In this document: positions 3,672 through 52,700 of the stretch, one piece after another
Numbering within the stretch: the first letter of the stretch is position 1
How the letters are laid out: each line of letters opens with the position of its first letter
Notes under the pieces: generated by a model
The model's input: only the letters and a program-made list of their open reading frames with translations
The model's database searches: none
What the model was told of the DNA's origin: nothing
Program-made: the position numbers and the translations under genes
Source: Opitutales bacterium
GTDB lineage: Bacteria; Verrucomicrobiota; Verrucomicrobiia; Opitutales; UBA2987
Assembly (NCBI GenBank): GCA_965226885.1
Contig: CBDDEL010000016.1
Location: 448,001 to 512,000 of the forward strand
DNA length: 64,000 nt
Direction of reading: 5' to 3'

Positions 3672-5641
3672 CTACAACCCCGGCGGCACACTGAAGAGGC
3701 TTGCCGTCCAGGCGCTGGAAAAATCTGCTTGTGGGGGTGTTGTTATTAAATGTCCAAATCCAGGCCGGAGTGTCGTTGAAAAGAAACTGCCAGCGATAGG
3801 TGTTTTGGTTGAGAAAAATCCATTCCTGCAAGCCAAAATCAAACAGGAAGATTACTTCGCTGTTGCTGTCCTCAGAAACGAATTGCCAGCCATGTTCATC
3901 GTGATAAATCCAGGGCCAGAAATCCACATTGTAATTCAGATACCAGGGCGATCCGCGCCACTCGGGGAAGCCTTCAATGGGTTCACCGCCAAATACATCG
4001 GGCGGCTCTGTGTTGTATATCTGATCGGCAAATTCCGGGAAATCGACGAAGGGATTGCGATTGCCCTGGAAACCGCTGAAGATCGTCTGATTCCTGAGCC
4101 GTTCGGTGTCGGTCACCGGATGCTCACGGTTCCAGGCCAGAAGGGTGTCCAGGATTCCCATTTCGGGAATTAAGCTCTGACCTCCAAATTGCGGATCATT
4201 GTTTAGCTTCAGATCAAGAGTTGCCTCATCGCTTCCGTCATAACGAACCGCCATGTAAAACATCGCTCTGGCGATTTCTCCCTTCACGCTGTCGGGCGGC
4301 TCCCACGAGTCAGAATCGCGGGAGACCTCGGGGGCCGGGCCGAACGAACCGGGAGGAAGATATTCAGCGTCGCCGGGGTCGCTGTCGTCAAATATCAGGT
4401 TGCCCCGGCTGCTGTTTATGGAAGCCAGGCTTGGGCGGAGGCTGAACAGGTCGGAAGTATCCGCCCCTGATTCGTCAATGCCCCTTGACTTGGGCCACAG
4501 GTGTTCACGGTTCCATATACTGGGAAAACCATTGAAAGGTTCAGAGGCAGCGGAAAATATCGGCATCACTTTACCCTGGTCAAAGAGGTCCAGGTCGAGA
4601 ACCTGAAAAGCCTCATCTGCCTGGGAAAAGGGAATGACCGTGTGCCCGTCGATGATATTGTGGAGGGCACTGGCCAACTCTGTTCCACTTTTTCCCTCCG
4701 CTGCGGCGTAGTAACCCGAGGGAACTGGATCAATTTGAAACTGTGAGCTGTCAAAAACAGTGAATGACCATTCAAAGTTCTCCGTCATATTGTCCGGGCT
4801 CTCATCAATGTCGCTGACCAGGCTGGCGAAAATCATTATCGTGACGGACTCGCCCTCTTGAAAATCCGTGGCAGTTTTGAGGGTAAAATCCGGGGAGTTA
4901 TCTGCGGCCGTGACTATTGCGGAAATCGATCCGCTCAAGCTCCCCTCAATGGAAAACCACTGGCCGTTCACATCTACTACTTCACTGAAAGAAACGAGAA
5001 TATCGGCCGCCGGAGGCACACCTACCCTGCCATTTTCAGGATCAAAGCCCGATACCATCGGCGGGAGGTCGGTGGCCTGGCCGGTGAAGGTTTGGTTTAC
5101 ATTTGCCGCCCCATAGGTGCTGGCCTCTGGAGCCTCCCATTGGAAGTCACTGGAATCGGAGCCGACACCCGAAAGTTGCAACGAGTGACCAATGGGTGTT
5201 GCAGAACCCTCCTGCACACCGAGGTCGATACTTTCGATTCCCGCGGCTGGCCCATCGGCCGCTATGAAGGTTCCCTCATAACTGAAAAATTCGACCAACG
5301 AACCTGAAGAATCGACCAGGGCCAACCCGTCCGGCGATCCGTTTTGAATTGGGACTATGGCGAAGAACACCGCTCCGATCCCACTGTCTTCCTGGGGGAT
5401 TATCCCACTTAAGGGAACAGTCTTATAAACTTTCAGTTCGGATGCGGTGCCATTGTAAAGGGCAAGGCTCCAGCCTGTCAGGTCGGTTCCTGACGGCCCG
5501 GCGACCTCAATTCCCTCGTTGGCGTCCGCCCCGCTGTTATCATAGGTTATCATAGTGGATTTCATTGATAAAGACCGGGCCTGCAAAAGCCGATATGGCA
5601 ACAATCAATGTGGCCATCAACACTGTGGAAGTTTTAATCAT
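3672..5641 (-). pseudogene. secreted lamin-tail + Ig-like + endonuclease I family nuclease with Trp-rich C-terminal domain; two frameshifts
   Basis: Reconstructed start MIKTSTVLMATLIVAISAFA-GPVFINEIHYDN is cut off by the 10-bp duplication GTTATCATAG x2 (5536-5555); endonuclease I motifs WNREHLWPKS, KGEIARAMFYMAVRY and QGNRNPFVD; a +1 A near 3701 shifts the terminal SLFSVPPGL*. Confidence 0.85.
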
Positions 5642-5654
5642 TCTTATATTTGAG

Positions 5655-5918
5655 TTAAGAGCCATCCTGGGATCGCTTTGAGTATAAATACGCCCGAACC
5701 ATGCACCAAAGCCAGGTCACGCTCAAAACTTCAAGAATGCCTGTGAAGAGCGATTGAGGGTAAAGCAGCGTCAGGGCAAGGGGACCGGCGCACAAGCATC
5801 CCACAACTATTGCCAGGTTATTCCAACGCTCTGCTTTTGGGTTGCCCCGGAATCGATCAGTGAAAAAGTTAAGTCCGGAAAGCCGCATTCGATTCAGTAG
5901 AAACAAAATCAATTCCAA
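5655..5918 (-). CDS. small membrane protein, hypothetical
   Basis: 87 aa with two hydrophobic segments; start uncertain. Confidence 0.45.
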   Translation of the reverse strand: MELILFLLNRMRLSGLNFFTDRFRGNPKAERWNNLAIVVGCLCAGPLALTLLYPQSLFTGILEVLSVTWLWCMVRAYLYSKRSQDGS

Positions 5919-6022
5919 TGGTCAAGCCTTATCGGGATAGCCTACCGGATAGCCTGCCGAAATGGGATTCAACACAATCCCCAAGCAACCCTTGCCGCCC
6001 GTTCACTCGCGGTTCTGAAATT

Positions 6023-6520
6023 TCAGGAGCCTTTTTGCATTGCAGCCATTTTGCGGAAGATACCTGGCCCATGAATTTGACGAAGCATTTTCCGCCGGAG
6101 GGCCACAGCCAGTTTAAAGGCTTTTTCCTCCCCATATTTGCGGATGGAGAAAGAAGTTGTTTTCAGTACTCCGGGGGAAGGGCTCCAACTGACTGAGTAA
6201 GCTTCGCTTATTTTCCCGGATGGGCTTTTCTTTGCCGTGCGGCAGACTCCCAACACTCCTGTAGTATTGCGGGGATTATGAGAAACGATCTTCCGACCCC
6301 AGGGTTTGGTGGGAATTTGGGCCAGCTTTTCGTGAAGTTCATCCCGATACTGACGGGCTTCTTTCTGCGCCTTCCTTTTGCCTCCACATTTCAGATCACT
6401 GAAAAGTTTGGGGTAGGTTTTCCCATTTTTGTACCCCCTCACGAACCATCCGTGGGTTGAGCCTGAATCAATGCGGGTGATTCCTTTGTTTTTTGGATCT
6501 TTCCTTTTTCTTTTAACCAT
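6023..6520 (-). CDS. AP2-domain DNA-binding protein, paralog b
   Basis: Same motifs as 3062-3559; intact 165 aa. Confidence 0.75.
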   Translation of the reverse strand: MVKRKRKDPKNKGITRIDSGSTHGWFVRGYKNGKTYPKLFSDLKCGGKRKAQKEARQYRDELHEKLAQIPTKPWGRKIVSHNPRNTTGVLGVCRTAKKSPSGKISEAYSVSWSPSPGVLKTTSFSIRKYGEEKAFKLAVALRRKMLRQIHGPGIFRKMAAMQKGS

Positions 6521-6550
6521 AAGCCAAAGCCAAAAGCCTTACCAGTCTTT

Positions 6551-6745
6551 TTAAGCCTGCAAAAGCTCAGGCTTGTTCATTTTCCAGGCGGCAGCCCCAG
6601 CCAGCAGGGTCATCAATACGATCATGCCCCATTCATTCAGGGTTGGGATGGGCTGTGGCACAACGCCGGTAGCCCCTGCCAGGATGGGGGTGTCGGGCGT
6701 GTCTTCATATGCCCAGTCTATTATGCTAACCGAGGTGGCCATTCC
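6551..6745 (-). pseudogene. 3' remnant of an IPTL-CTERM sorting-domain protein
   Basis: TSVSIIDWAYEDTPDTPILAGA...IPTLNEWGMIVLMTLLAGAAAWKMNKPELLQA closely matches the C-terminus at ~16230-16422; N-terminal part absent. Confidence 0.8.
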
Positions 6746-6950
6746 AAAAAAAATTGCCAAATCATATTGAAAGCAAATATTTGGATCGAAATATTGGATA
6801 GTAGCTATTTTCAACGATAGTGAATGTTCATATGGTAAATCTCGGTTAAATTCTGTGGACTTTTTGTTTCCTGAGAGCTATACAGAGTTACTTTACTTTT
6901 TCTCCACAGAGTTACTTTACTTTTTCTCCATTGTGCAATTTTTAGTTCTC

Positions 6951-7491
6951 ATGCGTCCGGAAATTACAGAAGAAAGCCATTGGTTCGCAGAAAACCTGCA
7001 GCCACATGAAGCCATGTTGCGGGCCTGGCTGCATAGTCGTTTTTCCAATGAGCACGATATAGACGATATCGTGCAGGAGGCATATTTCAAGGTCTTGAAA
7101 GCCCGAAAGACTACAAAGATCACTTCTCCCAAGGCTTTTCTTTTTGCCACTGCAAGAAATTTGGCTCTCGAAGGCATTAGAAAAAAATCGGTGCGCAGCG
7201 AACTTTCTTTGGTAGATTTGAACGAGTTTGACCTCTTGAATGATGAGGAGGACGTTAATGATGCCGTTGCTCGCTCCGAGGAACTTGAAATTTTGACCAG
7301 AGCCATACAGTCATTACCAACCCGTTGCCGCCAAATCATCACTTTGCGGAAGATATACGGCATGTCCCAAAAGGATATCGCCAAGGAACTTGGCATATCG
7401 GTGCATACGGTAGAAACTCAAGGAACTATAGGCATTCGGCATTCGCAAGCTCACAGAGTTTTTCGAGCGCTTGGAACGTCCAGCATACTAG
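6951..7491 (+). pseudogene. ECF (sigma-70 group 4) RNA polymerase sigma factor, frameshifted near the C-terminus
   Basis: DIDDIVQEAY and region-4 LPTRCRQIITLRKIYGMSQKDIAKELGISVHTVE; removing the 7-bp duplication GGCATTC x2 (7431-7444) gives ...GIRKLTEFFERLERPAY*. Confidence 0.85.
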
Positions 7492-10394
7492 CCCGGATAT
7501 TTCATGAAGGGTAAAGTTTGGCTCGTTATTGCTATTGGAGATGGATTTCTTTGTATTTTGAGCAGATCGTCTTGATTTTTAGGTGTTTTTCAGGGTGTAG
7601 AGACACTGCCCCCTTTCCCCCATTGGTTCGGTAGTGCCGGGGGCAGCACCAATGCACCCTTTAGGTTGGCACCAATCGGCGGGCCGCATGGTTGAAAAGA
7701 CTGGCCCAAGGATAACTCTCACTTAGGTGAAAGTGAATCGTTCGGGTGTTGCGCACGATGACCGCTCCGATCTTGATTAATTTGAGCCGCAGGGTGTGGC
7801 ATTGGGCCCGCGCCCACTTCGTCCCTTTTAAGGCTAACCGGCGCATGGCTTCCATCAAGGTGTAGGCCAGCGCCGACAAGAGCAATCGCCACTGATTGGC
7901 CCACCATTGATGGGCGCTGTGAAATGGACGGGGAAAACTGGACAGTGGAATAAGGTGGTCTTGAACCACTAAATCCGCTAACCTATGAATGTTATTAAAT
8001 CACGAAAGAGAAGACAATACAGTGCTGAGTTTAAAGCCCGAGTGGCCCTGGAAGCCATCAGGGGCGCTCATACCATCAACGAGATCGCCGGTCGTTTTGA
8101 GGTGCATCCCAACCAGGTGACCCAATGGAAGAAGCAGCTTTTGCAGGGAGCAACGGAGCTGTTTTCGCGCCAGCGGCAGACTCTCAGCAAGGACAACGAG
8201 ACGGAAAAAGATCACCTTTACCAGGAGATTGGAAAGCTGAAAGTAGAATGCGATTGGCTAAAAAAAAAGTCTGAACAATTCGGTTGGTGAGAGGCGCAAG
8301 ATGGTGCAACCACTTCAAGGAAAAATCAGTATCGGCAGGCAATGTCAGTTGCTGGGGCTGGCCCGCGGCAGCTATTACTATCGGGCCCGTGCCCAGTGCG
8401 AGCAGAACGTTCTCTACATGCATCGCATGGATGAGCTCTACACCCAATATCCGTTTTTTGGTTCTCGCCGGATGACCCAGTGGCTGCGTCGAGAGGGCCA
8501 TGCAGTGGGACGAGGCCGCATCCAGCGGCTCATGCGCCAAATGGGCCTGGAGGCTATTTATCCGCGTCGAAACTTGAGCCAGGGGCACCGGCAGCACCGC
8601 ATTTTCCCTTATCTGCTGCGGGGTTTGGCGGTCGAGCGGCCCGACCAGGTATGGTGCAGCGACATCACTTACCTGCGGCTGAGCCGAGGATTCCTTTTCT
8701 TGACCGTGGTGTTGGACTGGTTCAGCCGCTACGTGTTGAGCTGGCAGCTTTCCAACACCCTGGAGAGCCGCTTCTGTGTGCTCGCCCTGGAGGAAGCTCT
8801 GAGGCGGGCCCAACCTCAAATCTTCAACACCGATCAAGGCAGCCAGTTTACCGGCAGCGAGTTCACCTCGGTGCTGGGGCAAGCCGGGGTGCGCATCAGC
8901 ATGGACGGGCGTGGCCGCTACCTGGACAACATATTTGTTGAACGCTTTTGGAGAACCCTCAAGTATGAAGACATTTACCTGCGCGAATACGCCACGGCAA
9001 AGGAAGCCAGCGAAGGGATAGCCCGCTACCTGGACTTCTACAACCACCTGCGCCCCCACCAAGCCCTGGGCTACCGGACCCCGGCCGAAGTCCATGCAAT
9101 CGGAGCAAAACCACCCTCCCCGCCAATACAGCTTGCGGGCACCTGCGTGCCCGTCTTTGGCTAAGGACAAAATATATTTTTAAAAAATAATATGAACACG
9201 ATTTCCACCTTAATCCCACGTCAAAATTGTCCAAACAACCCCGTCCACTTCACTGGTGCGCTCGCTGAACAATTGCATCTGTTCCTTGATTCGGTTCTCC
9301 ATTTCACCGCGGCCACAGTATACCTTGTCGTAAAGCTCCTGGGGATCGCCCGGCAGGTTCGTCACCACGAAGCGCGGGTTGGACCCCTGTGCGGTGTGTT
9401 CGGCTTTATGGATGACCAACCGCAGCCATCGCCACGAATCGGCAGCATAGACGAAGTCCTGGAATAACCGTTGTTTTTTACCCCTTAGTTCGAACCATTC
9501 TTTGGCCTGCTTTTGCAACTGCTGGGCGTCTTGCTGCAAGCGTGCATTGCGAGCCATCCCCACGATGTAACTAACTTCGTTGCGGTCGCACCAAGAGAGT
9601 ATCCGGTCTCGACAAAATCCACTGTCGGCGCGCCAAATAATCCGCGTACGGGGCCAGCTTTGGCGAATCCGTTTAACCAGCAATTTGAGGATGGCCCCGG
9701 CATGCTTGCTGGCATCGATCTTGCTCGGCCGCAGGTAGGCCACCAGCAGCTGATCACCGCAAAAAACATATAGCGGCAGAAAACAGTAATGATCATAATA
9801 ACCGTGGAAAAAACGTCCCTCCTGGAGCCCGTGCACCGGAGTGTCGGTGGCGTCAAAGTCCAGGATGATCTCTTCGGGTTCCTCGGCAAAGGAGCCCATG
9901 AACTGTTCGACCAACAGCTCGTTTACCGCAAAGGCCGCCCGCCGATCCTGCCCGTTTTCAAAACGACACAAAGTCGGCGCGCTGGCCAACGTTTCAATGC
10001 GCCCCGTTACCGTTTGCAACAATGGATCGTGGCGCAGGGTATCAAAGTCGTTCAAATCCTCATAGCCCGCCACCAGCCCGTAAACGCGCTGCCGCAGCAT
10101 CCCCAATACCTCATGGCGTACTTTGCCCTTCTGCCGTTTGTCCACTAACTGTCGGGCCGCTCGTTCGGTCAAGCCCAACTGCCGATCCACTTCCCGGATC
10201 AAAAGCAGTCCGGCATCCGAAGTAACCTCTCCGCCCTTGAAATCAACCCGCACACGGCGGCCTTTTACCCTTGTCAACTGTAGCTTTAATTGTTTACCTT
10301 TTGTCATCGCTGATATTGCTTTAATTATTGATCTATCCTGCTGTATATCAGCAGTTAAGCATATCAACGATACTTTTTTTACGAAATATCCGGG
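7492..10394 (-). mobile_element. IS1380-family element copy 1, interrupted by IS3-type A
   Basis: IRs CCCGGATATTTC / GAAATATCCGGG; CTAG target duplication at 7488-7491 and 10395-10398; transposase split into 9253-10307 and 7661-7919. Confidence 0.92.
7920..9252 (+). mobile_element. IS3-family element type A, copy 1 (orfA 7985-8290, orfB to 9164)
   Basis: TG...CA ends (TGAAATGGACGGGG / CCCCGTCCACTTCA); 3-bp TSD CTG; A9G slippery site 8260-8269; DDE motifs WCSDITY, NTDQGSQF and VERFWRTLKYE. Confidence 0.95.
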
Positions 10395-10403
10395 CTAGCC
10401 ATC

Positions 10404-14235: not shown

Positions 14236-14240
14236 GATTA

Positions 14241-17028: not shown

Positions 17029-17796
17029 TTATTGTTTTGTGCCACGGCGACGGCGTCGAGCATCGCGCAAGCGGTAGCTTTGCCCGTTGGCTTCGAGGAT
17101 ATGCACCCGATGGGTGAGTCGGTCCAGCAGAGCTCCGGTGAGCCGTTCGGAACCGAGCACTTCGATCCAGTTCTCAAAGGGCAGGTTGGTGGTGACGATG
17201 AGACTGGTGCGCTCGTAAGCGCGGCTGACCACGTCGAAGAGCAGTTCGGAACCGGTCTTGGAAAAAGGGACGTAACCGAGTTCGTCGAGGATGAGTAGGT
17301 CGAGCCTTTCGAGTTGCTTCATGAAGCGCTGCAGGTCGTGGTTGTCGCGTTGCTCGAGCATATGGGTAACCAGGGCGGTGACCCCGAAGAAACGGATCCG
17401 CGGGCCCTGGGCACAGGCGGCAAAGCCCAGGGCGGTGGCCAGGTGCGTTTTACCGGTACCGGCGTTACCGAGGAGCAGCACGTTTTCGCGCTGGTCGACA
17501 TACTCCCCGCGCATGAGCTCTCGGATGAGCGCTTCGTTGATCGAGGGCTGCGCTTCAAAGGCGAAGCTCTCGAGGGTCTTGAGCACGGGGAAACGGGCGT
17601 TTTTGATCCGCCGCTGGGCGGCCCGCTGTTCGCGTTCAATGAGCTCCCGTTCGACCAGATGCAACAAAAAGGCGGCGTAATCGAGCCGGTCCCGGGAACA
17701 AGCCGCGGCCACCGCCGGCCATTCGCGCAGGATGGTGGGCAACTTCAGTTTCTTGAGGTGATGGTGTAACAGCAGCTGGTTTTTTTCTTCCTTCAT
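17029..17796 (-). CDS. istB: IS21 helper ATPase IstB
   Basis: Walker A GNAGTGKT, LLILDELGY, LDRLTHRVH. Confidence 0.93.
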   Translation of the reverse strand: MKEEKNQLLLHHHLKKLKLPTILREWPAVAAACSRDRLDYAAFLLHLVERELIEREQRAAQRRIKNARFPVLKTLESFAFEAQPSINEALIRELMRGEYVDQRENVLLLGNAGTGKTHLATALGFAACAQGPRIRFFGVTALVTHMLEQRDNHDLQRFMKQLERLDLLILDELGYVPFSKTGSELLFDVVSRAYERTSLIVTTNLPFENWIEVLGSERLTGALLDRLTHRVHILEANGQSYRLRDARRRRRGTKQ

Positions 17797-19298
17797 AAAG
17801 CCCCTCCTGGAATCTTGAGCAGTTCGCTGTAGGCACCGAGGTCAGGGGCGGCCACACGGACGTGACGCAGGTGTGGATGGCCGTCCAGCCGGAAGGTTCT
17901 GCTCCCGTAGTCTTCCTGAGGATAGAGATACTGGGCGATGGCCTCACGAGTCAGTCCCCCCACCCGCAGGGCCGAGACGACGGCCTGCTGCAAGGCCGCC
18001 ATGGGGTGTTTCTCCAACAGCCGCAGCACCCGGATATACTCCCGGGTGCCTTCGCCCCCGCATTGGCTTTCGAGCCGGCGTCTGAGGACCTGCAGGCACT
18101 GCGGCAACTGCCAGCCCGAGAGTGGGCGGGCGAAGTCCAAAGCGCCCGGTTTTTTCTCCAGCAAAGCCAGGTAGTGCACCGGCTCGAAAGAGACTTGCTC
18201 TTTATCCCAAATGCGGCGGTGCCGGGCCACCTCTTGGCCCCCACAGAAGATCATCACCTGCCGACAGGACCCTTCCACCACCACCGGATGGTGGGCGCAG
18301 CGCACCGGCACCGAATAGTCGTTGCACTCGAAGCGCACCAGCGAGAGGCTGCTGACGCAGGTCGAGCGTTTGCGGCTCGCTTCAAAGGGTATGGGCGGCA
18401 ACGCCAGCATGACGGCGCGCTCCTCGGCCAGCAGTTCCTTTTTCACCGCCCTTTTCCCGCGTAATTTACGCTCCATGTCCCGCTCACATGCCTCCAACAG
18501 CTTTGCGTTGAGTTCCTCCAGGTCCCGAACCTGCGGTACCGGTACCAGGAAGTTGGCCCGGGCATAACGCACGATCCCCTCGACCACGCCCTTCTCGTTG
18601 GGCCGGGCGGGCAGACAGAAGTGTTCCTCGAACAGGTAATGGCTCTGTAGCTGCAGAAACCCGTCGGTCAGCTTGCGTTCACGCGAACCGATAATCTTAC
18701 CCACCGCCACCTTCGAGTTGTCATAGCTGATGCGCCGGGGCACCGCCCCGAAAAACTCAAAAGCTCGCAGGTGCCCCTCCCAGAAGCTCTCCGTGCACTC
18801 CCGTTCGAACACCTGCACGAAAAAGGCATCGCTGTAGGGCAGGCTCATGGCAAAAAATGGCCGCCTACGCAATTGCCCCGCCTCCTTCACCAGGGCATGA
18901 CCGAAGTCCACCTGTCCCTCCCCGGGGCGGTGCTCCAGCGGCACGAACACTTCCCGCCGCCTCGCTCGCAGCTCGGCCACCACCTCCTTGACCGCCGTGT
19001 AGCCCCCTTGGTAGCCCTTCTCCCGACCCAAACGCTGGTAGATCCGTTTGGCCGTATGGCGCTGCTTCTTGGGCACGTTCCGGTCCGCTTTGAGCACCTC
19101 CTCGATCCAGCCCACATACGGATCGATCTTGCGCTCTCGCCTCTTCTTGCGCCGGTATCCCGGCGGCTGGGAATAGGCCAGCATCTTTCCCAGGGTCTCC
19201 CAGTGCAGTCCCTCTTCTCGCATTACAGAGCGCTTGCTCTGCTTGTCCCGCAGCACTTTGTGCCGCACTCTTGTCCATTGCTTCATATCTCGATACAC
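17793..19298 (-). CDS. istA: IS21 transposase IstA
   Basis: GQVDFG, YDNSK and EKGVVEGIVRY motifs. Confidence 0.93.
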   Translation of the reverse strand: MYRDMKQWTRVRHKVLRDKQSKRSVMREEGLHWETLGKMLAYSQPPGYRRKKRRERKIDPYVGWIEEVLKADRNVPKKQRHTAKRIYQRLGREKGYQGGYTAVKEVVAELRARRREVFVPLEHRPGEGQVDFGHALVKEAGQLRRRPFFAMSLPYSDAFFVQVFERECTESFWEGHLRAFEFFGAVPRRISYDNSKVAVGKIIGSRERKLTDGFLQLQSHYLFEEHFCLPARPNEKGVVEGIVRYARANFLVPVPQVRDLEELNAKLLEACERDMERKLRGKRAVKKELLAEERAVMLALPPIPFEASRKRSTCVSSLSLVRFECNDYSVPVRCAHHPVVVEGSCRQVMIFCGGQEVARHRRIWDKEQVSFEPVHYLALLEKKPGALDFARPLSGWQLPQCLQVLRRRLESQCGGEGTREYIRVLRLLEKHPMAALQQAVVSALRVGGLTREAIAQYLYPQEDYGSRTFRLDGHPHLRHVRVAAPDLGAYSELLKIPGGAL

Positions 19299-19372: not shown

Positions 19373-19892
19373 GCCTGGCCACCGTAACGATCCATGCTAC
19401 CAGGCAATCGCATCAGAATTTCGCCATTCTGCTGCCGATCATCCTGCTGGCGGCAATTCCCCTGAAACGTTATGCGACCACCCTTCAGCAAATGTTTTTC
19501 GGTCTTGTGATTATGAGTTTTTTTGCGGTCATTATGAATGTCGTGCAATCCTATCTTTTATTCAGTTCCTACCTGGAGCACGGTATGGGGACTACCACGG
19601 TATGGGGACTACGAATATTATGAAGGAGCGGCTGATCCTGCTGCCCGTCAATTATATCATCCTGCCTGCGGTGGCTATATTTTTATCCGGTTTTATCGTA
19701 AGCGGCAGCACCCGGTTTTTCACGGCGTGGCGGAGAAAGGCCACAGCAAGGCCGAAAAAGGCATCTGCGAAAATTTCCCAAAAAAGGGAAAAGGCCCGGC
19801 TGGCGGCTCTACCCAAAGCGGGCCGCAACGAGCCCTGCCCCTGCGGCAGCGGCAAGAAGTTTAAAAGATGCTGCGGAAAAGCCGCTGGCTAG
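19373..19892 (+). pseudogene. 3' part of a multi-TM membrane protein with a C-terminal SEC-C motif (possibly exosortase-system associated)
   Basis: [17 protein letters not shown]...[17 protein letters not shown] joins ORF 19602-19892 ([19 protein letters not shown]) after removing the 17-bp duplication at 19579-19612; 5' end lost at IS21. Confidence 0.65.
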
Positions 19893-20799
19893 AATTTACC
19901 TCAATTTTGTCAATTGGTGGGTAAATCTGGAGGCACGCTGAAGAGGTTGCCGTTGTCTAGCCTCTGGAAAAAGCGGCGGCCCGGCCGGTTGTCGCTGAAG
20001 GTAAAGACCCATTCGGCGTTGTCGCCCCCCGGCGTTGTCGCCCCCGAAGATGAATATCCAGCGGTAGGAATTTTCATTTAAAAATATCCATTGCCCCAAA
20101 CCGAGGTCCCAAAGGAAAATTACCGATTCGGTGCTGGACGCCGCCACAAACTGCCAGCCGTGCTCGTCGTGATAAATCCAGGGCCAGGAATCGACGTTGT
20201 AATTCATATACCAAGGTGAGCCTTTCCAGCCGGGGGAACCCTCTATATCCGTTCCGCCAAGAATATCCGGCTGTGAGGAGGAAACAAATTTATCATAATT
20301 TGAATGGAAACTGGATCGTTGTTCAGTGTTGAAGAAAAAGCCCATCCCTTGAACATCATCCCAATTGATCCCCCCAGGCAGCGGAATGTTGGTTGTGTTC
20401 CCAGGGAGGTTGAATTCTTCAAAAATGGGTGAGAAATTCGTGCTGTATATATTGATTCCCATGTTTTGGATAAAATCTGTGGAAGGGGCAGCCTGGTCAT
20501 CAATGGTTTTTAAAACGATATCGATGCTCTGTAGGGTATTGTCGCCATTCAGGTTGACGGTGGGAACCACGATCAGGTTTTGGTCGAGGAGAGACTGAAA
20601 ATCTACGTCTTTGCTAAAGACCACCGCATCGAAAACACTTACCTGGTAAGTGCCTGAAAAGCTGGATCCATCGGAAGGCGTGGCAAGGCTATCAATCCTG
20701 TAAAATCCCTGACCCTCGCCCTGATCCGGACCGAAAAATGCAATCGGCACAAGGCTGCCTGCCGGTCCGTCAAAGATGACATCGCCCAAGGCCGGAAAA

Positions 20800-21335
20800 T
20801 TTCCAGCGATGCCCTCGAAACTGTAGGAAAAATCGAATTGAGCATTTTCAATGGGAAAAATATTGGTTGTCACCTGGTTATTGGCGGCATCATTGAAAGA
20901 GCCGGCATCCTGGAAAAAGCTGAATTCCAAATCTTTCCGGCTGGTGTCTCCAAAATCGATGCAAGTGTCCGCTCCGTACAATGCTGCCGCATGCTGCCGC
21001 GAGGGTTCCATCGATTGTGGCACTATCGACAACCTTGAAAAATTCGATGCAAAGTTCGTCAACACCAACCAATTGTTTCCAGCGATGCCCTCGAAACTGT
21101 AGGAAAAATCGAATTGAGCATTTTCAATGGGAAAAATATTGGTTGTCACCTGGTTATTGGCGGCATCATTGAAAGAGCCGGCATCCTGGAAAAAGCTGAA
21201 TTCCAAATCTTTCCGGCTGGTGTCTCCAAAATCGATGCAAGTGTCCGCTCCGTACAATGCTGCCGCATGCTGCCGCGAGGGTTCCATCGATTGTGGCACT
21301 ATCGACAACCTTGAAAAATTCGATGCAAAGTTCGT
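20800..21335. repeat. 260-bp direct duplication with a 16-bp filler
   Basis: 20800-21059 equals 21076-21335; filler CAACACCAACCAATTG at 21060-21075. Confidence 0.9.
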
Positions 21336-21998
21336 AGCCTCCATCATCTTCAAGAAGACCGGGGGGGATAACAATGGAGGTAACTTCACCATTCAACTCA
21401 AAGGGTTCCGTATCAAAGATATTGTCGTCGCTGCCGTCCCGATTGAATTTTTCAATCTCTACAAAGATAAGGTCGTCGGGTCCTCCGTTTTGAAATTCAT
21501 CCCATCTGAGGGTGAAACCAGCACTCAAGGTGGCGCTCTGAAGTTCATTGAATGATGCCTCAGTGAGGCTAGGGGCATTGGGATAGGAGGTCCCCTTCGA
21601 TCGTCAAGTTGCGCGTGATCGCGCCCTGTGTGGCGCCGGTATAATGTATGGTGTAAGTGCCGTTGGGGGCCTCTAAATCCAAAGTGGCCTTATCGTCATA
21701 ATCCTCCTCAATATCCCACCCATCATCTTCACTAAATTCAAATTGGGTCGTGGTCATATCGGGTTCCGTGACAAAAGGCACCGGATTGGCCAATATTGAA
21801 CCGGTGGAACTTTCGCCTATAAATGCAAAAGCGCCCCAGGGTTCAAATTCCGCCAAAACCGCTCCCGAGGCGGAATCCTGAGTATGGAATTTTTCTTTAG
21901 CAATGACGATCAATTCAGCGTCCTGGGCCATTAAATGGATCCCGCCGGTAATAATCAATAAGAAGGATGAGACCAAAATTTTGGCCCAGTGGGTTGTG

Positions 21999-24678
21999 TG
22001 AAATGGACGGGGAAAACTGGACAGTGGAATAAGGTGGTCTTGAACCACTAAATCCGCTAACCTATGAATGTTATTAAATCACGAAAGAGAAGACAATACA
22101 GTGCTGAGTTTAAAGCCCGAGTGGCCCTGGAAGCCATCAGGGGCGCTCATACCATCAACGAGATCGCCGGTCGTTTTGAGGTGCATCCCAACCAGGTGAC
22201 CCAATGGAAGAAGCAGCTTTTGCAGGGAGCAACGGAGCTGTTTTCGCGCCAGCGGCAGACTCTCAGCAAGGACAACGAGACGGAAAAAGATCACCTTTAC
22301 CAGGAGATTGGAAAGCTGAAAGTAGAATGCGATTGGCTAAAAAAAAAGTCTGAACAATTCGGTTGGTGAGAGGCGCAAGATGGTGCAACCACTTCAAGGA
22401 AAAATCAGTATCGGCAGGCAATGTCAGTTGCTGGGGCTGGCCCGCGGCAGCTATTACTATCGGGCCCGTGCCCAGTGCGAGCAGAACGTTCTCTACATGC
22501 ATCGCATGGATGAGCTCTACACCCAATATCCGTTTTTTGGTTCTCGCCGGATGACCCAGTGGCTGCGTCGAGAGGGCCATGCAGTGGGACGAGGCCGCAT
22601 CCAGCGGCTCATGCGCCAAATGGGCCTGGAGGCTATTTATCCGCGTCGAAACTTGAGCCAGGGGCACCGGCAGCACCGCATTTTCCCTTATCTGCTGCGG
22701 GGTTTGGCGGTCGAGCGGCCCGACCAGGTATGGTGCAGCGACATCACTTACCTGCGGCTGAGCCGAGGATTCCTTGATGTGCACTGGAAAAAGTGGACAC
22801 GAGATTCTCCTAAATGGAGAATCGAAGCATGGGAAGAAGACGCATGGGAAGAAGACGCTTTAGTATAGAGTTCAAAAATGAGGCAGTTCAACTGATGATA
22901 CTCGATGGTCTGAGCGCCACCGAGGTATCGACCAAACTTGGGGTCAACACCAACCAATTGTATAGGTGGAAGAGGCTCTATCTGGACGATCAGCAGGGCG
23001 AAGCCACCTCAAAGCGACAGAGCAGTCCGAAGGAGATGGCGGCCGAGATAGATCGTCTTCGCAAAGAGCTGCGCCGCTCGGAGCGGATCAACCAGATACT
23101 AAAAAAAACGGTGGGCTACTTTGCCAAGGACGAACAATGAAGTACCAGTTTGTCAAAGACAACGAGGGGCGCTTCAAGATCGAGGAAATATGCTCGGCGA
23201 TGGGGATTTGTCGCAGTGGCTATTACTGCTGGAGGCACCGAGCGCCCTCGGCCCGGCGGATCGAGGACGAGGGAATCAAGGGGGCGATCCTGAAGGTACA
23301 CAAAGAGGCCAAGGGCCGCTATGGGCATCGGCCAATGCACCGCCATCTGAAGGATGATGAGGGCATCGATTGCGGCCGTGACCGGGCTCTGCGTCTGATG
23401 CGTGAAATGGGAATCAAAAGCACCCAGAGTAAACGCTTTAAGCCATTAAAAACCAACAGTAACCATCCCTATGGTTACAGCCCCAATGTGCTTAAAAAGC
23501 ATGGCCAGCCGACCCATATCGACGAGGTCTGGGTGGCGGACACGACCTACCTACGGACCCTGGCCGGTTGGATGTACTTGGCCACGGTGATGGACCTGTT
23601 CAGCCGACGCCTGCTGGGCTGGAGCGTTTCCAACCACAACGACGCGAAGCTGGTTGGCAAGGCCCTCAAAGCCGCGGCCATGACCCGCGGCACACTGCGC
23701 ACCGGGATTATTCATCACAGCGATCGGGGCAGCCCCTACGCCAGCGACGACTATCAGAGGCTGGTCTCTGAACTAGGCATGAAGCCGAGCATGAGCGCCC
23801 AAGGCAACTGCTACGACAACGCGGCCATGGAATCGTTCTACGGCCGCTTCAAGACCAGCACGATTCGAGGCCGCCACTTTGCCGACGAGCGCGAACTGCG
23901 ATCAACTGTCTTCGAATACGTGGAAATCTTCTACAACCGATATCGCAAACATTCCTCTCTGAGTTACCAAAGCCCAGTCCAATTCGAGGAAAATATTTGC
24001 CCCCCATGGGGGGCAACGAGAAAACAAAACCCTTTACCAAAACAAGCCGCCTGACACACTAATCAATAAACAATGAATATAAGAGAATCCCGTGTCCAAC
24101 AAATCCAGTACACGTCATCCTTTTCTTGACCGTGGTGTTGGACTGGTTCAGCCGCTACGTGTTGAGCTGGCAGCTTTCCAGCACCCTGGAGAGCCGCTTC
24201 TGTGTGCTCGCCCTGGAGGAAGCTCTGAGGCGGGCCCAACCTCAAATCTTCAACACCGATCAAGGCAGCCAGTTTACCGGCAGCGAGTTCACCTCGGTGC
24301 TGGGGCAAGCCGGGGTGCGCATCAGCATGGACGGGCGTGGCCGCTACCTGGACAACATATTTGTTGAACGCTTTTGGAGAACCCTCAAGTATGAAGACAT
24401 TTACCTGCGCGAATACGCCACGGCAAAGGAAGCCAGCGAAGGGATAGCCCGCTACCTGGACTTCTACAACCACCTGCGCCCCCACCAAGCCCTGGGCTAC
24501 CGGACCCCGGCCGAAGTCCATGCAATCGGAGCAAAACCAACCTCCCCGCCAATACAGCTTGCGGGCACCTGCGTGCCCGTCTTTGGCTAAGGACAAAATA
24601 TATTTTTAAAAAATAATATGAACACGATTTCCACCTTAATCCCACGTCAAAATTGTCCAAACAACCCCGTCCACTTCA
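21999..24678 (+). mobile_element. IS3-family type A, copy 3, interrupted by IS3-type B
   Basis: Type A ends; TSD GTG; orfB split at 22774/24118. Confidence 0.93.
22775..24117 (+). mobile_element. IS3-family element type B, copy 1
   Basis: Ends TGATGTGCACTGGA / TCCAGTACACGTCA; TSD TCCT; orfA to 23140, orfB to 24054 (WVADTTY, HSDRGSPY, CYDNAAMESF); private 15-bp duplication at 22827-22856. Confidence 0.95.
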
Positions 24679-34398: not shown

Positions 34399-34413
34399 TT
34401 GAGAATGCTGAAT

Positions 34414-45353: not shown

Positions 45354-45522
45354 CCCGGATATTTCGTAAAAAAAGTATCGTTGATATGCTTAACTGCTGA
45401 TATACAGCAGGATAGATCAATAATTAAAGCAATATCAGCGATGACAAAAGGTAAACAATTAAAGCTACAGTTGACAAGGGTAAAAGGCCGCCGTGTGCGG
45501 GTTGATTTCAAGGGCGGAGAGG
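45354..45522 (+). mobile_element. IS1380 left-end fragment
   Basis: Matches the start of copy 1 through GGEV; preceded by TTAG. Confidence 0.9.
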
Positions 45523-47265: not shown

Positions 47266-47904
47266 CGGACCCGAATACATAGTTTCTGGATGCTCTTTTA
47301 GTTAAAAAATACTTCTGGTCCTGGGAGGAAAAGTTAACTTCAAAAAATTCCACAATCCCTCCCCTGGATATTGTGATCAAGCGATCCCCCTCTTTGCGTC
47401 CCGTATAAAAAGTTCCGGCATATTGGTTTTCCAGTTCGGCGACTTGATTGCCATCGCTAATTACCGGAATGGTAACCGGCGGGAACAAGTGGTCGGTTGG
47501 AGTGAGCAGCTTGTGGCCGATGGCCGCCACAATTACGGCAACGATGATGAGTACCAAACAAGGATAGAGGAATTTTTTGGCAAAGCCCGGCCCCGAATGT
47601 TGAACGGGCGTTTGCTCTACAGGCGTTGCCTCAATACCTGTTATAATGAACAATGCCTCTCCGGGAGTAGTCTCAATGCCCGATAAATTTGGATCGTTGG
47701 TATCCGAAAGGTAGAGCTTATCAATTCCTGCTTCGATGTTGAAAACGCCTTTGGATGAAGTCACCTTAATGTTCGGGGTAATATCCGAATTCGTGTCGAT
47801 GGAAATTGCGGCGAACAACTCCAAATATTCTACCAACTTGGTATTGGTCACGTCTCCGATTTCGAGTCGGCCGAATTTATCGTCAACCTCCAAAAAATCG
47901 CTGC
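47266..47904 (-). pseudogene. internal fragment of a hypothetical single-TM protein
   Basis: Open frame bounded by IS630 (5') and IS1 (3'). Confidence 0.55.
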
Positions 47905-47906
47905 TA

Positions 47907-49021
47907 TTAATCCGGCAATTGAATAGTAACAGTTAAGCGGCGTATTGAACATCCCGATGATGGAAGAGTTTTTTAATCAAAATTGGTTTTCGTTGCCTGC
48001 TGCGCAGGTGGGTTCGCAGACTTCCCTGCAACTCAATTTGGCTGCGCGGGGCCGGCAGGTTCTTCAAGTTCGCTTTGACCGTGTTATTCAAATACTCATC
48101 GGGGTTCAATTCGGGACTGTAAGATGGTAGATAAAAAATCTCGATCCTATCGCGGTGGGCTTCAATCCAACCGGTTACTTTTTTAGCATGATGCACTCTC
48201 AGATTGTCCACAATGAGAAAGATTTTCCGTTTGGCTCCTTTGATTAACTGGCGCAGAAATTTGATAAACAGTTCCACATTCAAGGCTCCCTTGTAAACCA
48301 TGAAACGCAGCTTTCCACGGTTGGTTATAGTCGAGATCATGCTCGTGCTAAAACGACGCGCACTGCGTTTGGCAACTGGCGTTTTACCGCGCGGAGCATA
48401 ACCTCTTCCCCGATGATCTTCGCTACTGATGCCGGTTTCATCTCCCCAGTGGATTTGGGCCTGTTGCGCTTTGGCTCTGGCTTCGATGGCCGGGTAAGTT
48501 TGATCAAGCCACTTCTTAATCGCCTCAGGCTGCTGCTCATAGGCTTGTCTTCGAGGTTTTTGTGGAGTGAAACCCCAACGGCGAAGATACTCGCCCACCG
48601 TGCGGATCGGCATCTTCAAAGCAAACTGCCTTTCAATCAACTCTTGCACCGCTTGGCGCGTCCACAGGGCAAAGGGCATCTTAAGCTGGTCGGGTCCTCT
48701 TATCGGTAATCATTCGGCACACCATGCGCTCTTGTTGGGAGCTCAATCTTCGACATTGGCCCTGCCGACGGCCCCGTTGTCCAAGCCGCAGGGCTTTTGG
48801 CCCTCCATTTCGGTAAAGGGCCCACCATTTGCGCACAGCGCTGATCGATACCTTTAAAACCACGGAAACCTCTTCATAAGTGCAACCCTCTCTTTTCAGA
48901 TCCACCGCCCGACACCTCAACTCATATATAGTCTCTTCGCTTAGTGAACGCGCATCATTCCTATTCATGAACCTACTTTAGCATAAGTTATTGATATGTC
49001 ACTATTTATTTGCCGGATTAA
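47907..49021 (-). mobile_element. IS630-family element copy 1, transposase frameshifted
   Basis: IRs TTAATCCGGCAA flanked by TA; WGDETG, VDNLRVH and SPELNPDE motifs; extra C near 48697 relative to copy 2. Confidence 0.92.
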
Positions 49022-49023
49022 TA

Positions 49024-49773
49024 GTTACATCGTGGGGATGGCTCGCAATGCACGCTTGCAGCAAGACGCCCAGCAGTTGCAAAAGCAGGCCAAAGAATGG
49101 TTCGAACTAAGGGGTAAAAAACAACGGTTATTCCAGGACTTCGTCTATGCTGCCGATTCGTGGCGATGGCTGCGGTTGGTCATCCATAAAGCCGAACACA
49201 CCGCACAGGGGTCCAACCCGCGCTTCGTGGTGACGAACCTGCCGGGCGATCCCCAGGAGCTTTACGACAAGGTATACTGTGGCCGCGGTGAAATGGAGAA
49301 CCGAATCAAGGAACAGATGCAATTGTTCAGCGAGCGCACCAGCGCCCATCAATGGTGGGCCAATCAGTGGCGATTGCTCTTGTCGGCGCTGGCCTACACC
49401 TTGATGGAAGCCATGCGCCGGTTAGCCTTAAAAGGGACGAAGTGGGCGCGGGCCCAATGCCACACCCTGCGGCTCAAATTAATCAAGATCGGAGCGGTCA
49501 TCGTGCGCAACACCCGAACGATTCACTTTCACCTAAGTGAGAGTTATCCTTGGGCCAGTCTTTTCAACCATGCGGCCCGCCGATTGGTGCCAACCTAAAG
49601 GGTGCATTGGTGCTGCCCCCGGCACTACCGAACCAATGGGGGAAAGGGGGCAGTGTCTCTACACCCTGAAAAACACCTAAAAATCAAGACGATCTGCTCA
49701 AAATACAAAGAAATCCATCTCCATCTCCAATAGCAATAACGAGCCAAACTTTACCCTTCATGAAATATCCGGG
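49024..49773 (+). mobile_element. IS1380 right-half fragment
   Basis: Transposase C-terminus to 49598 and right IR followed by CTAG. Confidence 0.9.
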
Positions 49774-49883
49774 CTAGTTGGTAATCGATTTAGCTTGTTT
49801 TTAATCATGTCATGCAATGATTTAATCGCCTTCGGCGAGTCGACTGCTCGGAAATATCCAAATCTAGCTTTCCTAACTGGTAA

Positions 49884-50747
49884 ATGAAAACTTCAACCGA
49901 GACATTGGCCGCGCTTTTGCATGGGCCGGACAAACCGGGCTTGGTGGCGCGGGTGGCCGGTTGGATCCATGAGAACGGCGGCAATATCATACATGCCGAT
50001 CAACATCGGGACGCGGAAGAATAGATTTTTTTCCAAAGAGTAGAATGGGCGCCGCCGGACGGTGAGGTTGAATCGCAGTTGGCGGCTTTCAACGCGCTGG
50101 CGGGAGAATTTGGAATGAAAGTTCAGGTGGCGCGTTCTACCGAAAGGCCGAAGATTGCTCTCTTTGTATCGCGAGCCGCTCATTGTTTCCACGATCTCAT
50201 ACTTCGGTGGAAGGCGGGGGAATTTCGGGCAGAGATAGTCTGTGTGGTATCGAACCACGATACCCTGCGGTCAGCTTCCGAGGGATATGGGCTTCCTTAT
50301 TGTCATATTCCCATTCATCGGGAGAGCCCATCACGGGCTCTGGCCGAAGAGAAGCAACTGGAAGTTCTTGAAAAATACGATGTGGAACTGGTTGTCCTGG
50401 CCCGTTATATGCAAATCCTTTCGGCCCGAATGCTGGAGAAAATGGGTTGCCCGGCCATCAATATCCATCATTCGTTTTTGCCCGCCTTTGCCGGGGCCAA
50501 TCCCTACCGCCAGGCCTATCGGCACGGGGTGAAAATCATTGGGGTGACCGCCCATTATGTCCGCGCGGAGCTTGATGCCGGCCCGATCATCCAGCAGGAT
50601 GTGACACATGTGACTCACCGTCACGGAGTCGAAGACCTAATGCGCAAAGGCAGGGACCTGGAAAAAGCGGCACTGGCCCAGGCGGTTCGCTGGCACCTGG
50701 AAAACCGGGTGCTCGTTTACAATAACAAAACCGTGGTTTTCGATTGA
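49884..50747 (+). pseudogene. purU: formyltetrahydrofolate deformylase with an in-frame amber stop
   Basis: ACT domain MKTSTETLAALLHGPDKPGLVARV; TAG at 50022-50024; LARYMQIL, INIHHSFLPAF, GVTAHYV. Confidence 0.9.
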
Positions 50748-50808
50748 TCGGTCCTCGGATTTCGATCAAAAACCAGCCCGGCGGGGCCGGATATTCATTT
50801 TTACTCGC

Positions 50809-52269
50809 TTAATTTACGGGCAAACCCTCAGGCACGCTGAAAAGGCTGCCATTATCTAGCCTCTGAAAAAAGCGCCGACCCGGAGCATTATCGTCAAAAG
50901 TGAAAACCCAACCCTGGTCGTCTCCGAACAGGTATATCCATCGGTAGGAGTTTTCGTTCAAGAACACCCATTTGGCCAAACCGAAATCCCACAGAAAAAT
51001 AACATCCGCGGCGCTGCCCTCATGAATGTACTGCCAGCCGTGCTCGTCATGGTAAATCCAGGGCCAGAAATCCACACTGTAGTTCATGTACCAAGGCGAA
51101 ACCCACCATCCGGGAAAGCCCTCAATGGCGGAGCTGTTAAAAAATCCCAGGTTTTGCAATTCATATGACAACAAAGGTATGAGAAAAAGCTGCCCTTCGA
51201 TGATGTCGCGGATGGCCGATCCGGCACTGATATCGAGAAAATTTCGTTCCAGTTCCAAAATGAACAGATTGGATAATTCCGTCAAATCGCTTATGTCCGT
51301 AATCTGGTTTCCATTGAGGACCAGCTGGGACAGATCTGCCAGAACGCTCAGCGGGTCAATAATGTGTATCTGGTTGTCACTCAGGTTCAGGTTTTGCAAC
51401 GCGGTGAGGCCGATCAAAGGGCTCAGGTTACCAATCTGGTTATGGTTTAAAAACAGTGACGTCAATGCCGTCAGACCGCTAATCGAGTTTAGGTTGTCAA
51501 TCTGATCTCTACTCAGGATCAGCGTCCTCAAATTCGTCAAACCGCTCAGGGGGCCAAGGGCGCTGATTTGATTGCCGCTGAGATTGAGGCTGGTTAATGC
51601 GCCGAGGCTGCTCAAGGGGTTTAAGTCGCCAATCTGGTTGGCGCTGAGATCGAGGACTGCCAGGGACGATAATCCGCTCAAGGGCTCGAGGTTGCTAATT
51701 TGGTTGGCCCCAAGGTCGAGAGTGGCCAGCGCGGTTAATCCACTCAACGGGCTCAGGTTGGATATCTGGTTTCCACCCAAATCCAGGTTCTGGAGGCTCG
51801 TCACACCGCTCAGGCCGCCGATGCCGCCGATCTGGTTGCCACCGAGGTCAAGGGTGGTCAGGGCGGTCAAGCCGCTTAAGGAGCCCACGTCACTGATATT
51901 GTTGCCCCCGAGATCCAGGGAAACCAGGGCAGTCAGAGCGCTCAATGGGCTCAGGTCGCTGATTTTGTTGCCATTGAGGCTGAGGCTGGTTAAATTTTGG
52001 GCGGCCTCCAAGCCCGTCAAATCGTCAATATTCAATTCGAGGACATTGAGGGAGGTTAGGGAATTTAAATCCTCCGTCGTTAATTCTCCAATAGGTTTGC
52101 CAAGCTCACCGCGAATAGCCAATTCGAGGGCAATTTCCGGCACATCCACGGAATATACGGAAAGAGGAATGAGGCTCAAAAAAAGCGTAGTCAGCAAAGA
52201 AAACCCTAGTTTTGGACAGCCATATTTGGCCCGTCCAAGTCTATTTTCCCCATTCGCCAATTCTACCAT
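50809..52269 (-). CDS. secreted internalin-like leucine-rich-repeat protein with Trp-rich C-terminal domain
   Basis: Hydrophobic signal segment; about 12 22-aa LRRs (LxxLxLxxNQIxxLxPLSGLT); C-terminal WPWIYHDEHGWQ...RFFQRLDNGSLFSVPEGLPVN. Confidence 0.88.
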   Translation of the reverse strand: MVELANGENRLGRAKYGCPKLGFSLLTTLFLSLIPLSVYSVDVPEIALELAIRGELGKPIGELTTEDLNSLTSLNVLELNIDDLTGLEAAQNLTSLSLNGNKISDLSPLSALTALVSLDLGGNNISDVGSLSGLTALTTLDLGGNQIGGIGGLSGVTSLQNLDLGGNQISNLSPLSGLTALATLDLGANQISNLEPLSGLSSLAVLDLSANQIGDLNPLSSLGALTSLNLSGNQISALGPLSGLTNLRTLILSRDQIDNLNSISGLTALTSLFLNHNQIGNLSPLIGLTALQNLNLSDNQIHIIDPLSVLADLSQLVLNGNQITDISDLTELSNLFILELERNFLDISAGSAIRDIIEGQLFLIPLLSYELQNLGFFNSSAIEGFPGWWVSPWYMNYSVDFWPWIYHDEHGWQYIHEGSAADVIFLWDFGLAKWVFLNENSYRWIYLFGDDQGWVFTFDDNAPGRRFFQRLDNGSLFSVPEGLPVN

Positions 52270-52387
52270 TCAGGAGACATCTTACGCTACCATTCAGGAG
52301 ACATCTTACGGTTAATAGCTTCCTTGTCAATTATAGTCCGCGCCATAATTTGTAATTGCATTTGATACCACTTTTAACCCCTCTCGC

Positions 52388-52700
52388 TTAATTGGAGAGC
52401 CCGGGCGGGATGCTGAAGAGGCTGCCATCTACAATTCTCTGGAAAAACTTTCGATCCGAGGTGTTGTCATCGAATGTCCATATCCAGCCGGAATTGTCGC
52501 CAAAAAGGAACATCCAGCGATAGGTATTTTCGTTCAGAAAAAGCCACTGGCCCAAGTCAAAGTCCCAGATGTAGATTATTTCTTCTGTGGTGCCATCAAA
52601 AACAATTGCCAGCCGTGCTCGTCATGGAAAATCCAGGGCCAAATATCGACATTATACTTGAGATGCCAGGAGGGAGGAGTGCCAGCTGACAATTCCATCG
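52388..52700 (-). pseudogene. orphan, frameshifted copy of the Trp-rich C-terminal domain
   Basis: WHLKYNVDIWPWIFHDEHGWQ [frameshift] VFDGTTEEIIYIWDFDLGQWLFLNENTYRWMFLFGDNSGWIWTFDDNTSDRKFFQRIVDGSLFSIPPGLSN*; absent from the ORF track. Confidence 0.8.

Follow-up and report, generated by a model that had tools for sequence, protein, structure and literature searches.

The ways in which diderm bacteria outside the Bacteroidota retain secreted enzymes and adhesins at their surface are poorly understood. To our knowledge, PEP-CTERM/exosortase is the only system of this kind in the Verrucomicrobiota, and it is largely uncharacterised biochemically. Non-covalent surface anchors that attach to envelope polymers include the choline-binding (CW_binding_1, PF01473), SLH, WxL and GW domains. 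The PEP-CTERM tag is described as a stretch of about 25 residues, made up of a PEP motif, a transmembrane (TM) helix and a basic cluster, that was discovered through a census pattern in which many unrelated exported proteins share one end (PMC1569441). A folded C-terminal precedent is provided by the type IX secretion system's (T9SS) C-terminal domain (CTD), an outer-membrane export signal with a beta-sandwich fold according to two papers (PMC4804311, PMC8545088). Here, we describe a Trp-rich domain of ~110 residues that presents the same census pattern and that is encoded four times in a 64,000-nucleotide stretch of an Opitutales genome (the window; positions 448001-512000 of contig C16 of genome G000). 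The domain most likely keeps the proteins that carry it at one common place, probably the cell surface. New in this work are the genome-wide census, the position statistics, a subtype tree, the homology with shorter tails, a transporter cassette and the negative result of a search for PEP-CTERM replacements.

A shared C-terminal domain in the window and its genome

A profile (A1) built from 21 copies of the domain was compared with all 41,829 six-frame open reading frames (ORFs) of at least 60 amino acids (aa) in the genome. Forty-seven ORFs match and 41 of these stop within three residues of the domain end. Twenty-seven copies are intact and terminal, with N, D or E as the last residue in 22, mostly after GLP-x, giving a shared ...GLP-x-[N/D/E] end. 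Around 20 loci were judged by eye to be complete, with signal peptide, passenger and domain, the remainder being fragments. Three profile iterations extended the set from 47 to 52 ORFs only (five additions), and a scan of the genome for W-rich tails found just one further family, that of a metallophosphoesterase. As judged from their sequences, ~45 putatively Sec-exported proteins of this lineage's genome share a domain copied onto their C-termini, which tags about 1% of the genome's genes. Two of the carrier genes (ORFs of 1247 and 860 aa) are present in identical pairs in an ~18 kb segment that is duplicated at C15:713617-740796.

Within the window, the original prediction had placed four copies of the domain, two of them with ends that are reached only across frame breaks, and both statements stand. 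The last 115 residues of copy 3, which is also the first row of our alignments A1 and A2, were used as the tblastn query. Copy 1 was recovered at E = 2e-40, copy 2 at E = 4e-32 plus 3e-13 in two frames and copy 4 at E = 3e-27, again in two frames (coordinates in Table 1). The resemblance among the four copies is far beyond chance.

The domain is acidic (median isoelectric point 4.3) and rich in aromatic residues (7.9% Trp; 23% W, F and Y together), with almost no Cys. It contains no membrane-spanning hydrophobic stretch, the highest 19-residue Kyte-Doolittle mean being 1.29, and these statistics concur with the prediction that neither a TM helix nor a basic tail is present. H41, H44, D62, R100 and several Trp residues are retained even at 30-45% identity. 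An AlphaFold2 model computed from a 46-row alignment (local confidence score, pLDDT, 92; predicted template-modelling score, pTM, 0.83) opens with a short helix, after which ten short strands form five W/F/Y-rich hairpins, where the prediction had spoken of aromatic beta-hairpins in general. A recurring pattern in hairpins 2-4 consists of three residues that are hydrophobic or aromatic, a turn and then (G)W-x-F. According to this model the domain is an autonomous, acidic, all-beta module built of five aromatic hairpins. The complex prediction for two copies scored 0.00, which speaks neither for nor against self-association.

That the domain belongs to no known family had also been predicted, and library and structure searches bear this out. 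No Pfam or NCBIfam family covers it, either on the window proteins (Pfam, E ≤ 0.1) or on 46 close and distant members (E ≤ 1), no sequence in the PDB matches its profile at E ≤ 1 and no description was found in the open-access literature searched. Foldseek returned no PDB match at E ≤ 1e-3 (best 0.82) and the viral structure library BFVD gave no match to the model; the fold comparison covers solved structures and BFVD, and a missing match is no proof of a new fold. The family is thus unnamed and its predicted fold apparently has no match, whilst its job is most likely of a known kind.

The passengers are diverse. Among 29 carrier ORFs of the genome, Pfam recognises leucine-rich repeats (LRR), an NPP phosphodiesterase with LRR, S8 with MAM, NHL, FG-GAP, lamin-tail, EEP, CAP, cadherin-like/Big_9/CHRD, endonuclease I, BNR, ASPIC and PQQ propeller domains; for nine of the 29, Pfam recognises nothing. 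Further passenger types, encoded in other genomes, are M23 peptidase, cyclophilin and multihaem cytochromes. By their family assignments, the passengers are of unrelated, putatively extracytoplasmic types. Complete carrier genes begin with clear signal peptides. Of 104 carriers in other genomes, 64 passed a crude signal-peptide test, and among the 40 that failed are several that are plainly truncated at the N-terminus or were missed by the test; the background, scored with a more lenient variant, was 29% of 2,773 ORFs. Together, the Pfam results and the signal peptides of the complete genes uphold the claim that the domain is common to unrelated secreted proteins.

Position, lineage and neighbourhood

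To place the domain within its proteins, 169 sequences were collected, of which 167 match the profile; two with multi-stretch hits (P0094 and P0125) were dropped as repeat-protein artefacts. With C-terminal defined as a domain end no more than 10 residues from the protein end, the domain is C-terminal in 148 members, N-terminal in 11 and was scored as internal in eight. Four of the eight internal cases are frameshifted or truncated genes, the window's own among them, and four are genuinely internal. Seven of the 11 N-terminal cases are full-size proteins with the domain straight behind a signal-like N-terminus; among the distant relatives, such proteins continue from signal peptide and domain into FGE-sulfatase, CotH or fasciclin domains. 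One protein, P0131, bears the domain at both ends. Some proteins, conserved from one genome to another, consist of a signal peptide and nothing but the domain (L002, 171 aa; P0031 and P0034, 168 aa). At loci of four other genomes (G008, G014, G056 and G135), 31 of 35 matches lie within 12 residues of the ORF end. The domain had been described as always terminal, and the 11 N-terminal and four genuinely internal cases, together with the stand-alone forms, are at odds with this. They also divide the function that had been proposed, an export signal or a non-covalent anchor: by the criteria that came with the prediction, the N-terminal and domain-only forms weaken the former and favour the latter, that is, an anchor or binding module.

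The family is phylogenetically narrow. In a phmmer search of 1.84 billion representative proteins, 296 matches had E ≤ 1e-3, of which 96 reached 1e-10 and 45 reached 1e-30. Among GTDB species genomes the close family is found in Opitutales metagenome-assembled genomes (MAGs). The domain is present in 18 of 61 relatives and in nine of 301 genomes of a phylum-wide sample, these nine including all five of family f14. Counts in the genus of the window's genome (g1) are 47 in that genome and 10, 48, 33 and 37 in four congeners. G008, from the same family, has 31 matches and its small-genome congeners G005 and G007 have none. With a broader profile, 38 matches are seen in G008, 24 in G014, 23 in G056 and four in G135. 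A close copy (L060; 60% identity) lies on a contig labelled as a Robiginitomaculum sp. MAG that comes from the same OFTM isolate series as three Opitutales MAGs; its presence in an alphaproteobacterial MAG is probably a binning error and not a transfer. The sequencing runs that hold most of window positions 19850-20350 (58-94% of words; three studies) are organism-labelled and not metagenomes, and marine and sediment metagenomes hold only small shares of this segment. Taken with the load of insertion sequences and pseudogenes, the organism-labelled runs hint at a host-associated bacterium.

A tree of 88 copies, made by a quick method and with moderate branch supports, resolves a g1-type clade of 54 rows (all copies from the window's genome, nearly all those sampled from its congeners and two of 12 from G008), a G014/G056/G135 clade of 16 rows and a G008-type clade of 17 rows. 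Genome labels change 45 times on this tree against 60.2 times when shuffled, and none of 200 shuffles was as low. Subtype therefore tracks lineage more than passenger, and each lineage has its predominant subtype.

How the module may change on a given passenger is illustrated by orthologues of L094, a lamin-tail carrier. P0283, with a passenger 96% identical, has a g1-type module, and P0284 (passenger 88% identical) and P0285 (79%) each have a different subtype (E = 3.6e-16 and 1.8e-13 for the module). More distant orthologues (33-59%) end in shorter W/Y hairpin tails, and P0305 and P0309 (41% and 36%) end in an unrelated tail. On the sequence comparison, the module appears to have been exchanged whilst the passenger was conserved. 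The short W/Y-rich tails, which belong to other Verrucomicrobiota (for example P0286, P0288, P0291 and P0301), occupy the same C-terminal place on the same lamin-tail passenger. The last hairpin or hairpins and the motifs HDEH and RRFFQR are missing from them. Their homology with the domain extends over its positions 13-88 (76 columns; hhalign probability 95.7%, E = 1e-8), so the domain is a lineage-specific elaboration of a wider and equally unnamed family of hairpin tails; precomputed Pfam lists for the short-tail orthologues give only LTD and leave the tails unnamed too. Most endonuclease I homologues from other Verrucomicrobiota (P0174-P0280) have a different C-terminal domain of ~70 aa in the slot of our domain. 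It ends in ...[RQ]-[FY]-[FY]-R-[LV]-x-x (...RFYRL), and here the Pfam lists show Endonuclease_1 only.

To survey the neighbourhood, the 727 ORFs that lie no more than 6 kb from the 47 carriers were compared all against all. The recurrent neighbours are insertion-sequence families, a TonB-receptor/metallophosphoesterase cassette and a few small unannotated families, and no recognised sortase or transporter candidate was found among them. The commonest neighbours of carriers genome-wide belong to repeated families of insertion sequences, with as many as 34 ORF copies. In four paralogous cassettes of the genome (Table 1), a lamin-tail carrier lies directly downstream of a TonB-dependent receptor of 1071 aa (CarboxypepD_reg, Plug and barrel), and in two of the four (C14 and C17) a metallophosphoesterase of ~1010 aa comes after the carrier. 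The receptor-carrier pair recurs at six congener loci. This conserved adjacency fits a protein that needs to stay beside an outer-membrane transporter.

The cassette resembles a unit for capture at the surface and uptake, with nucleic acids or phosphoesters as possible substrates. Its metallophosphoesterase L117 (C14:506573-509620) ends in a different Trp-rich tail, its last ~80 residues, with 12 W in the last 90 residues, which the domain profile misses. Such a tail is also present at C17:850499-853528 and in a fragment on C16, and is possibly a more distant hairpin tail.

The carrier genes of the window

Coordinates of the domain copies, their genes and the tandem duplications within them are collected in Table 1, together with the TonB-receptor cassettes found elsewhere in the genome.

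Table 1. Features of the window (positions within the 64,000-nucleotide stretch) and receptor cassettes of the genome (contig:positions)
Feature	Location	Strand	Description
Domain copy 1	3672..3999	-	One extra base at 3702 breaks the frame; true stop 3672-3674
Gene 1	3672..5641	-	Signal peptide (5582-5641), Big_5, Endonuclease_1 (Endonuclease I), domain; broken twice
10-bp tandem duplication	5536..5555		Perfect (Tandem Repeats Finder, TRF: 2.0 copies, 100% match); frameshifts gene 1 right after the signal peptide
Domain copy 2	19910..20267	-	Frameshifted by the 16-bp duplication; true stop 19910-19912
Gene 2	19910..22048	-	Three ORF pieces, remains of a ~604-aa protein: signal peptide, passenger of unknown function, domain
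16-bp tandem duplication	20014..20045		Perfect (TRF: 2.0 copies, 100%); inside domain copy 2
276-bp tandem duplication	20800..21335		Perfect (1.9 copies); inside the gene 2 passenger
Domain copy 3	50809..51147	-	Intact; ~115 aa, residues ~372-486 of the LRR protein; ends ...SVPEGLPVN-stop
Gene 3	50809..52269	-	486 aa; in-frame signal-like N-terminus, internalin-like LRR passenger, domain; LRR_4 E = 2e-58
Domain copy 4	52388..52700	-	Orphan, decayed; frame change near 52606, degenerate first hairpin; no passenger, no signal peptide
Cassette (receptor, lamin-tail carrier)	C14:506573-515727
Cassette (receptor, lamin-tail carrier)	C10:406074-412256
Cassette (receptor, lamin-tail carrier)	C15:183913-190047
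Cassette (receptor, lamin-tail carrier)	C17:844400-853528

Gene 3 is the sole unbroken carrier within the window and its protein ends in ...RRFFQRLDNGSLFSVPEGLPVN. Internalin models score far under their cut-offs on it.

Gene 1 had been read as a lamin-tail/endonuclease I protein. The Pfam scan corrects this: copy 1 forms the end of an ORF (3634-5604, minus strand) that bears Big_5 and Endonuclease_1, and no lamin-tail domain is found in it at E ≤ 0.1. Past position 3702 the other frame gives SLFSVPPGL-stop. The signal peptide, MIKTSTVLMATLIVAISAFA, is severed from the rest of the gene by the 10-bp duplication, and in the orthologue P0170 the signal peptide is in frame.

In gene 2, the signal peptide sits in a separate ORF (21569-22048), and past the 16-bp duplication the other frame of copy 2 runs to ...PPDLPTN-stop. 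The three pieces are collinear in congeners and form a single frame throughout in L037, which fits a protein of ~604 aa; the full-length relatives P0001, P0005, P0011 and P0043 have 603-604 aa and no Pfam match. Logan contigs of two runs, each from a different study (X10 record 2 and X11 record 14), show the 16-bp duplication with no differences. It is thus unlikely to be a slip in the assembly of this genome, although the source sample may be one of these runs. In a check against reads, run X13 had no coverage at this point and X1 spans only 20109-20259.

Copy 4 starts directly past the stop of an unrelated ORF (52747-53754). The three perfect tandem duplications, of 10, 16 and 276 bp, all lie within two carrier genes and both short ones cause frameshifts. 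Pairs of transposase-like ORFs are found amid the window's carrier genes at 17029-19298, 47933-48968 and 22064-24054; by their motifs, they are putatively IS21-like (istA/istB), IS630-like and IS3-like elements.

Candidate functions and comparison with known systems

We favour a reading in which the domain is a non-covalent tether and not a cleaved sorting signal, and put its probability at roughly 0.45. Carriers would be exported by the Sec pathway and the domain would then bind the cell's own envelope, at one component that is common to all carriers and specific to the lineage; a surface protein or a glycan of the outer membrane (lipopolysaccharide or capsule) could be that component. In this way the cell surface would retain nucleases, phosphoesterases and proteases, adhesin-like LRR, cadherin and FG-GAP proteins and the partners of TonB-dependent transporters, which would otherwise diffuse away. 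That the domain binds, what it binds and where its carriers finally reside we infer: the N-terminal and stand-alone forms, the hairpin-repeat build, the conserved polar cluster and the failure to find a machine among the carriers' neighbours favour a binding module, whilst the lineages' own predominant subtypes and the association with an outer-membrane transporter speak for the cell's own envelope rather than for a substrate in the environment.

A number of observations weigh against such a tether. In the close family (E ≤ 1e-40) the domain is C-terminal in 68 of 71 proteins, and the three exceptions include at least two frame-broken copies from this window (P0028 and P0030). This near-strict position and the shared ...GLP-x-[N/D/E] end are equally expected of a sorting signal that is recognised or processed. 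The survey of the neighbours of 47 carriers found no envelope receptor. Nor is the lineage pattern clean: the g1 subtype accounts for two of the 12 copies sampled from G008, and a G008-type copy is present in one genome of g1. Finally, most of the facts behind the tether would also be accounted for by a target outside the cell, such as the surface of a host or a particle. Placing the surface tether first, we rank an external target second and a sorting signal third.

A folded C-terminal sorting signal would be handled by a dedicated outer-membrane machine for export or attachment, much as the T9SS handles its CTD, and perhaps be cleaved or covalently attached. Besides the position statistics of the close family, the 41 of 47 ORFs that stop with the domain in this genome, the extreme C-terminus conserved in 22 of 27 intact copies and the dozens of signal-peptide carriers per genome, in the manner of the PEP-CTERM census, are in keeping with this. 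So, too, is the scarcity of PEP-CTERM in the genus. The window's genome has one intact and one broken exosortase gene (C10:342486-343181; C16:20093-24261) and only one convincing PEP-CTERM protein in 5.5 Mb (C6:9726-9794; one or two by regular expression), and counts across the genus are 1, 10, 7, 7 and 4 against 47, 10, 48, 33 and 37 copies of the domain. In ten relatives from the same order that lack the domain, the PEP-CTERM matches number 24-41 per genome. Both tags occur together, however, in G008 (33 PEP-CTERM, 31 domain) and G056 (47 and 12), so that the two are numerically complementary in the genus yet not exclusive. No PEP-CTERM-like tail was found replacing the domain in 113 endonuclease I, 39 lamin-tail or 30 NHL homologues, most of the last having no tail whatever. 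With distant homologues that carry the domain at the N-terminus, forms that have no passenger and recurrent neighbours that offer insertion sequences and the TonB-receptor cassette but no candidate machine, we regard a sorting signal as improbable.

The external alternative is a lectin-like module or carbohydrate-binding module (CBM) that would direct many enzymes and adhesin-like proteins to one substrate outside the cell, be it the surface of a host, the matrix of a biofilm or a polysaccharide of algae or particles; it appears unlikely as well, if slightly less so. Aromatic hairpin repeats with conserved polar residues would suit it, as would a domain found at either terminus or alone in the manner of CBMs, and LRR, cadherin, NHL, FG-GAP and CAP passengers are reminiscent of eukaryotic interaction proteins; the organism-labelled runs, insertion sequences and broken genes would fit host-associated life. 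Against this, the Pfam matches of the 29 scanned carriers include no carbohydrate-active enzyme family, one predominant subtype per lineage across passengers fits a self receptor better and the carriers beside TonB-dependent receptors are needed at the cell's own surface. A module for oligomerisation, joining carriers into one extracellular complex or layer, has in its favour the general logic that carriers with a shared module could dock onto one another through it. We saw no scaffold bearing receptor modules in multiple copies and found two domain copies only in P0131 and P0155, and we consider co-assembly very improbable.

If the tether is taken as the working hypothesis, the domain marks out which proteins are likely to make up the surface proteome of a lineage that is uncultured and possibly host-associated, and it provides a concrete handle on surface retention in diderms, albeit with a function that is inferred and in a narrow family (nine of 301 genomes). 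As a new entry in family libraries it would end the labelling of these tails as hypothetical, and as a small module that is predicted to fold well it is a candidate for structure determination and for use as a display tag. A far-reaching version, which we think doubtful, is that of an undescribed surface-display system of marine Opitutales, in which a C-terminal domain of five aromatic hairpins and a new fold on up to ~50 exoproteins would be served by a lineage-specific outer-membrane receptor or export machine coevolving with its subtypes and would play, in the genus, the part that PEP-CTERM/exosortase has in its relatives.

How, then, does the domain compare with described systems? The original prediction held it to be neither a PEP-CTERM tag nor a T9SS CTD, and profile searches agree. 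The T9SS CTD (Por_Secre_tail, PF18962/TIGR04183; Bacteroidota) is, like our domain, folded, all-beta, ~80-110 residues long and free of a TM helix, and it is found at the extreme C-terminus of dozens of unrelated Sec-exported proteins per genome. It is, however, an Ig-like sandwich and not a set of five hairpins and comes from a different phylum, and the obligatory C-terminal place that our close family shares with it is lost in the wider family, with its N-terminal, internal and stand-alone members. The T9SS CTD profile has no match on the window proteins (E ≤ 0.1), on 46 domain members (E ≤ 1) or in the whole genome (E ≤ 0.01). A search of the genome for SprA_N (PF14349) gave nothing, but control genomes gave no signal either; PorU and PorV were not searched. 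An autotransporter or other outer-membrane beta-barrel was considered and rejected, the domain having no membrane-spanning barrel strands with a terminal aromatic residue.

PEP-CTERM (TIGR02595, PF07589; exosortase EpsH, PF09721) resembles the domain in being a multi-copy C-terminal tag on diverse signal-peptide proteins, and it occurs in the same order. The domain, however, has 110 residues, is acidic and soluble and lacks the PEP-TM-basic architecture, and PF07589 has no match on its 46 members at E ≤ 1. By analogy, it works most plausibly like the non-covalent anchors of the choline-binding type. CW_binding_1, a repeat of ~20 residues, has no match on the 46 members at E ≤ 1, and the choline-binding structure 2bml is found in the Foldseek results at rank 50 with a non-significant E of 4.6. 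Choline-binding modules are arrays with a variable number of repeats, whereas our domain is a fixed unit of five hairpins in a diderm bacterium, but both would place aromatic beta-hairpins, in a string, at the terminus of exported passengers of many kinds and so hold these non-covalently on an envelope polymer.

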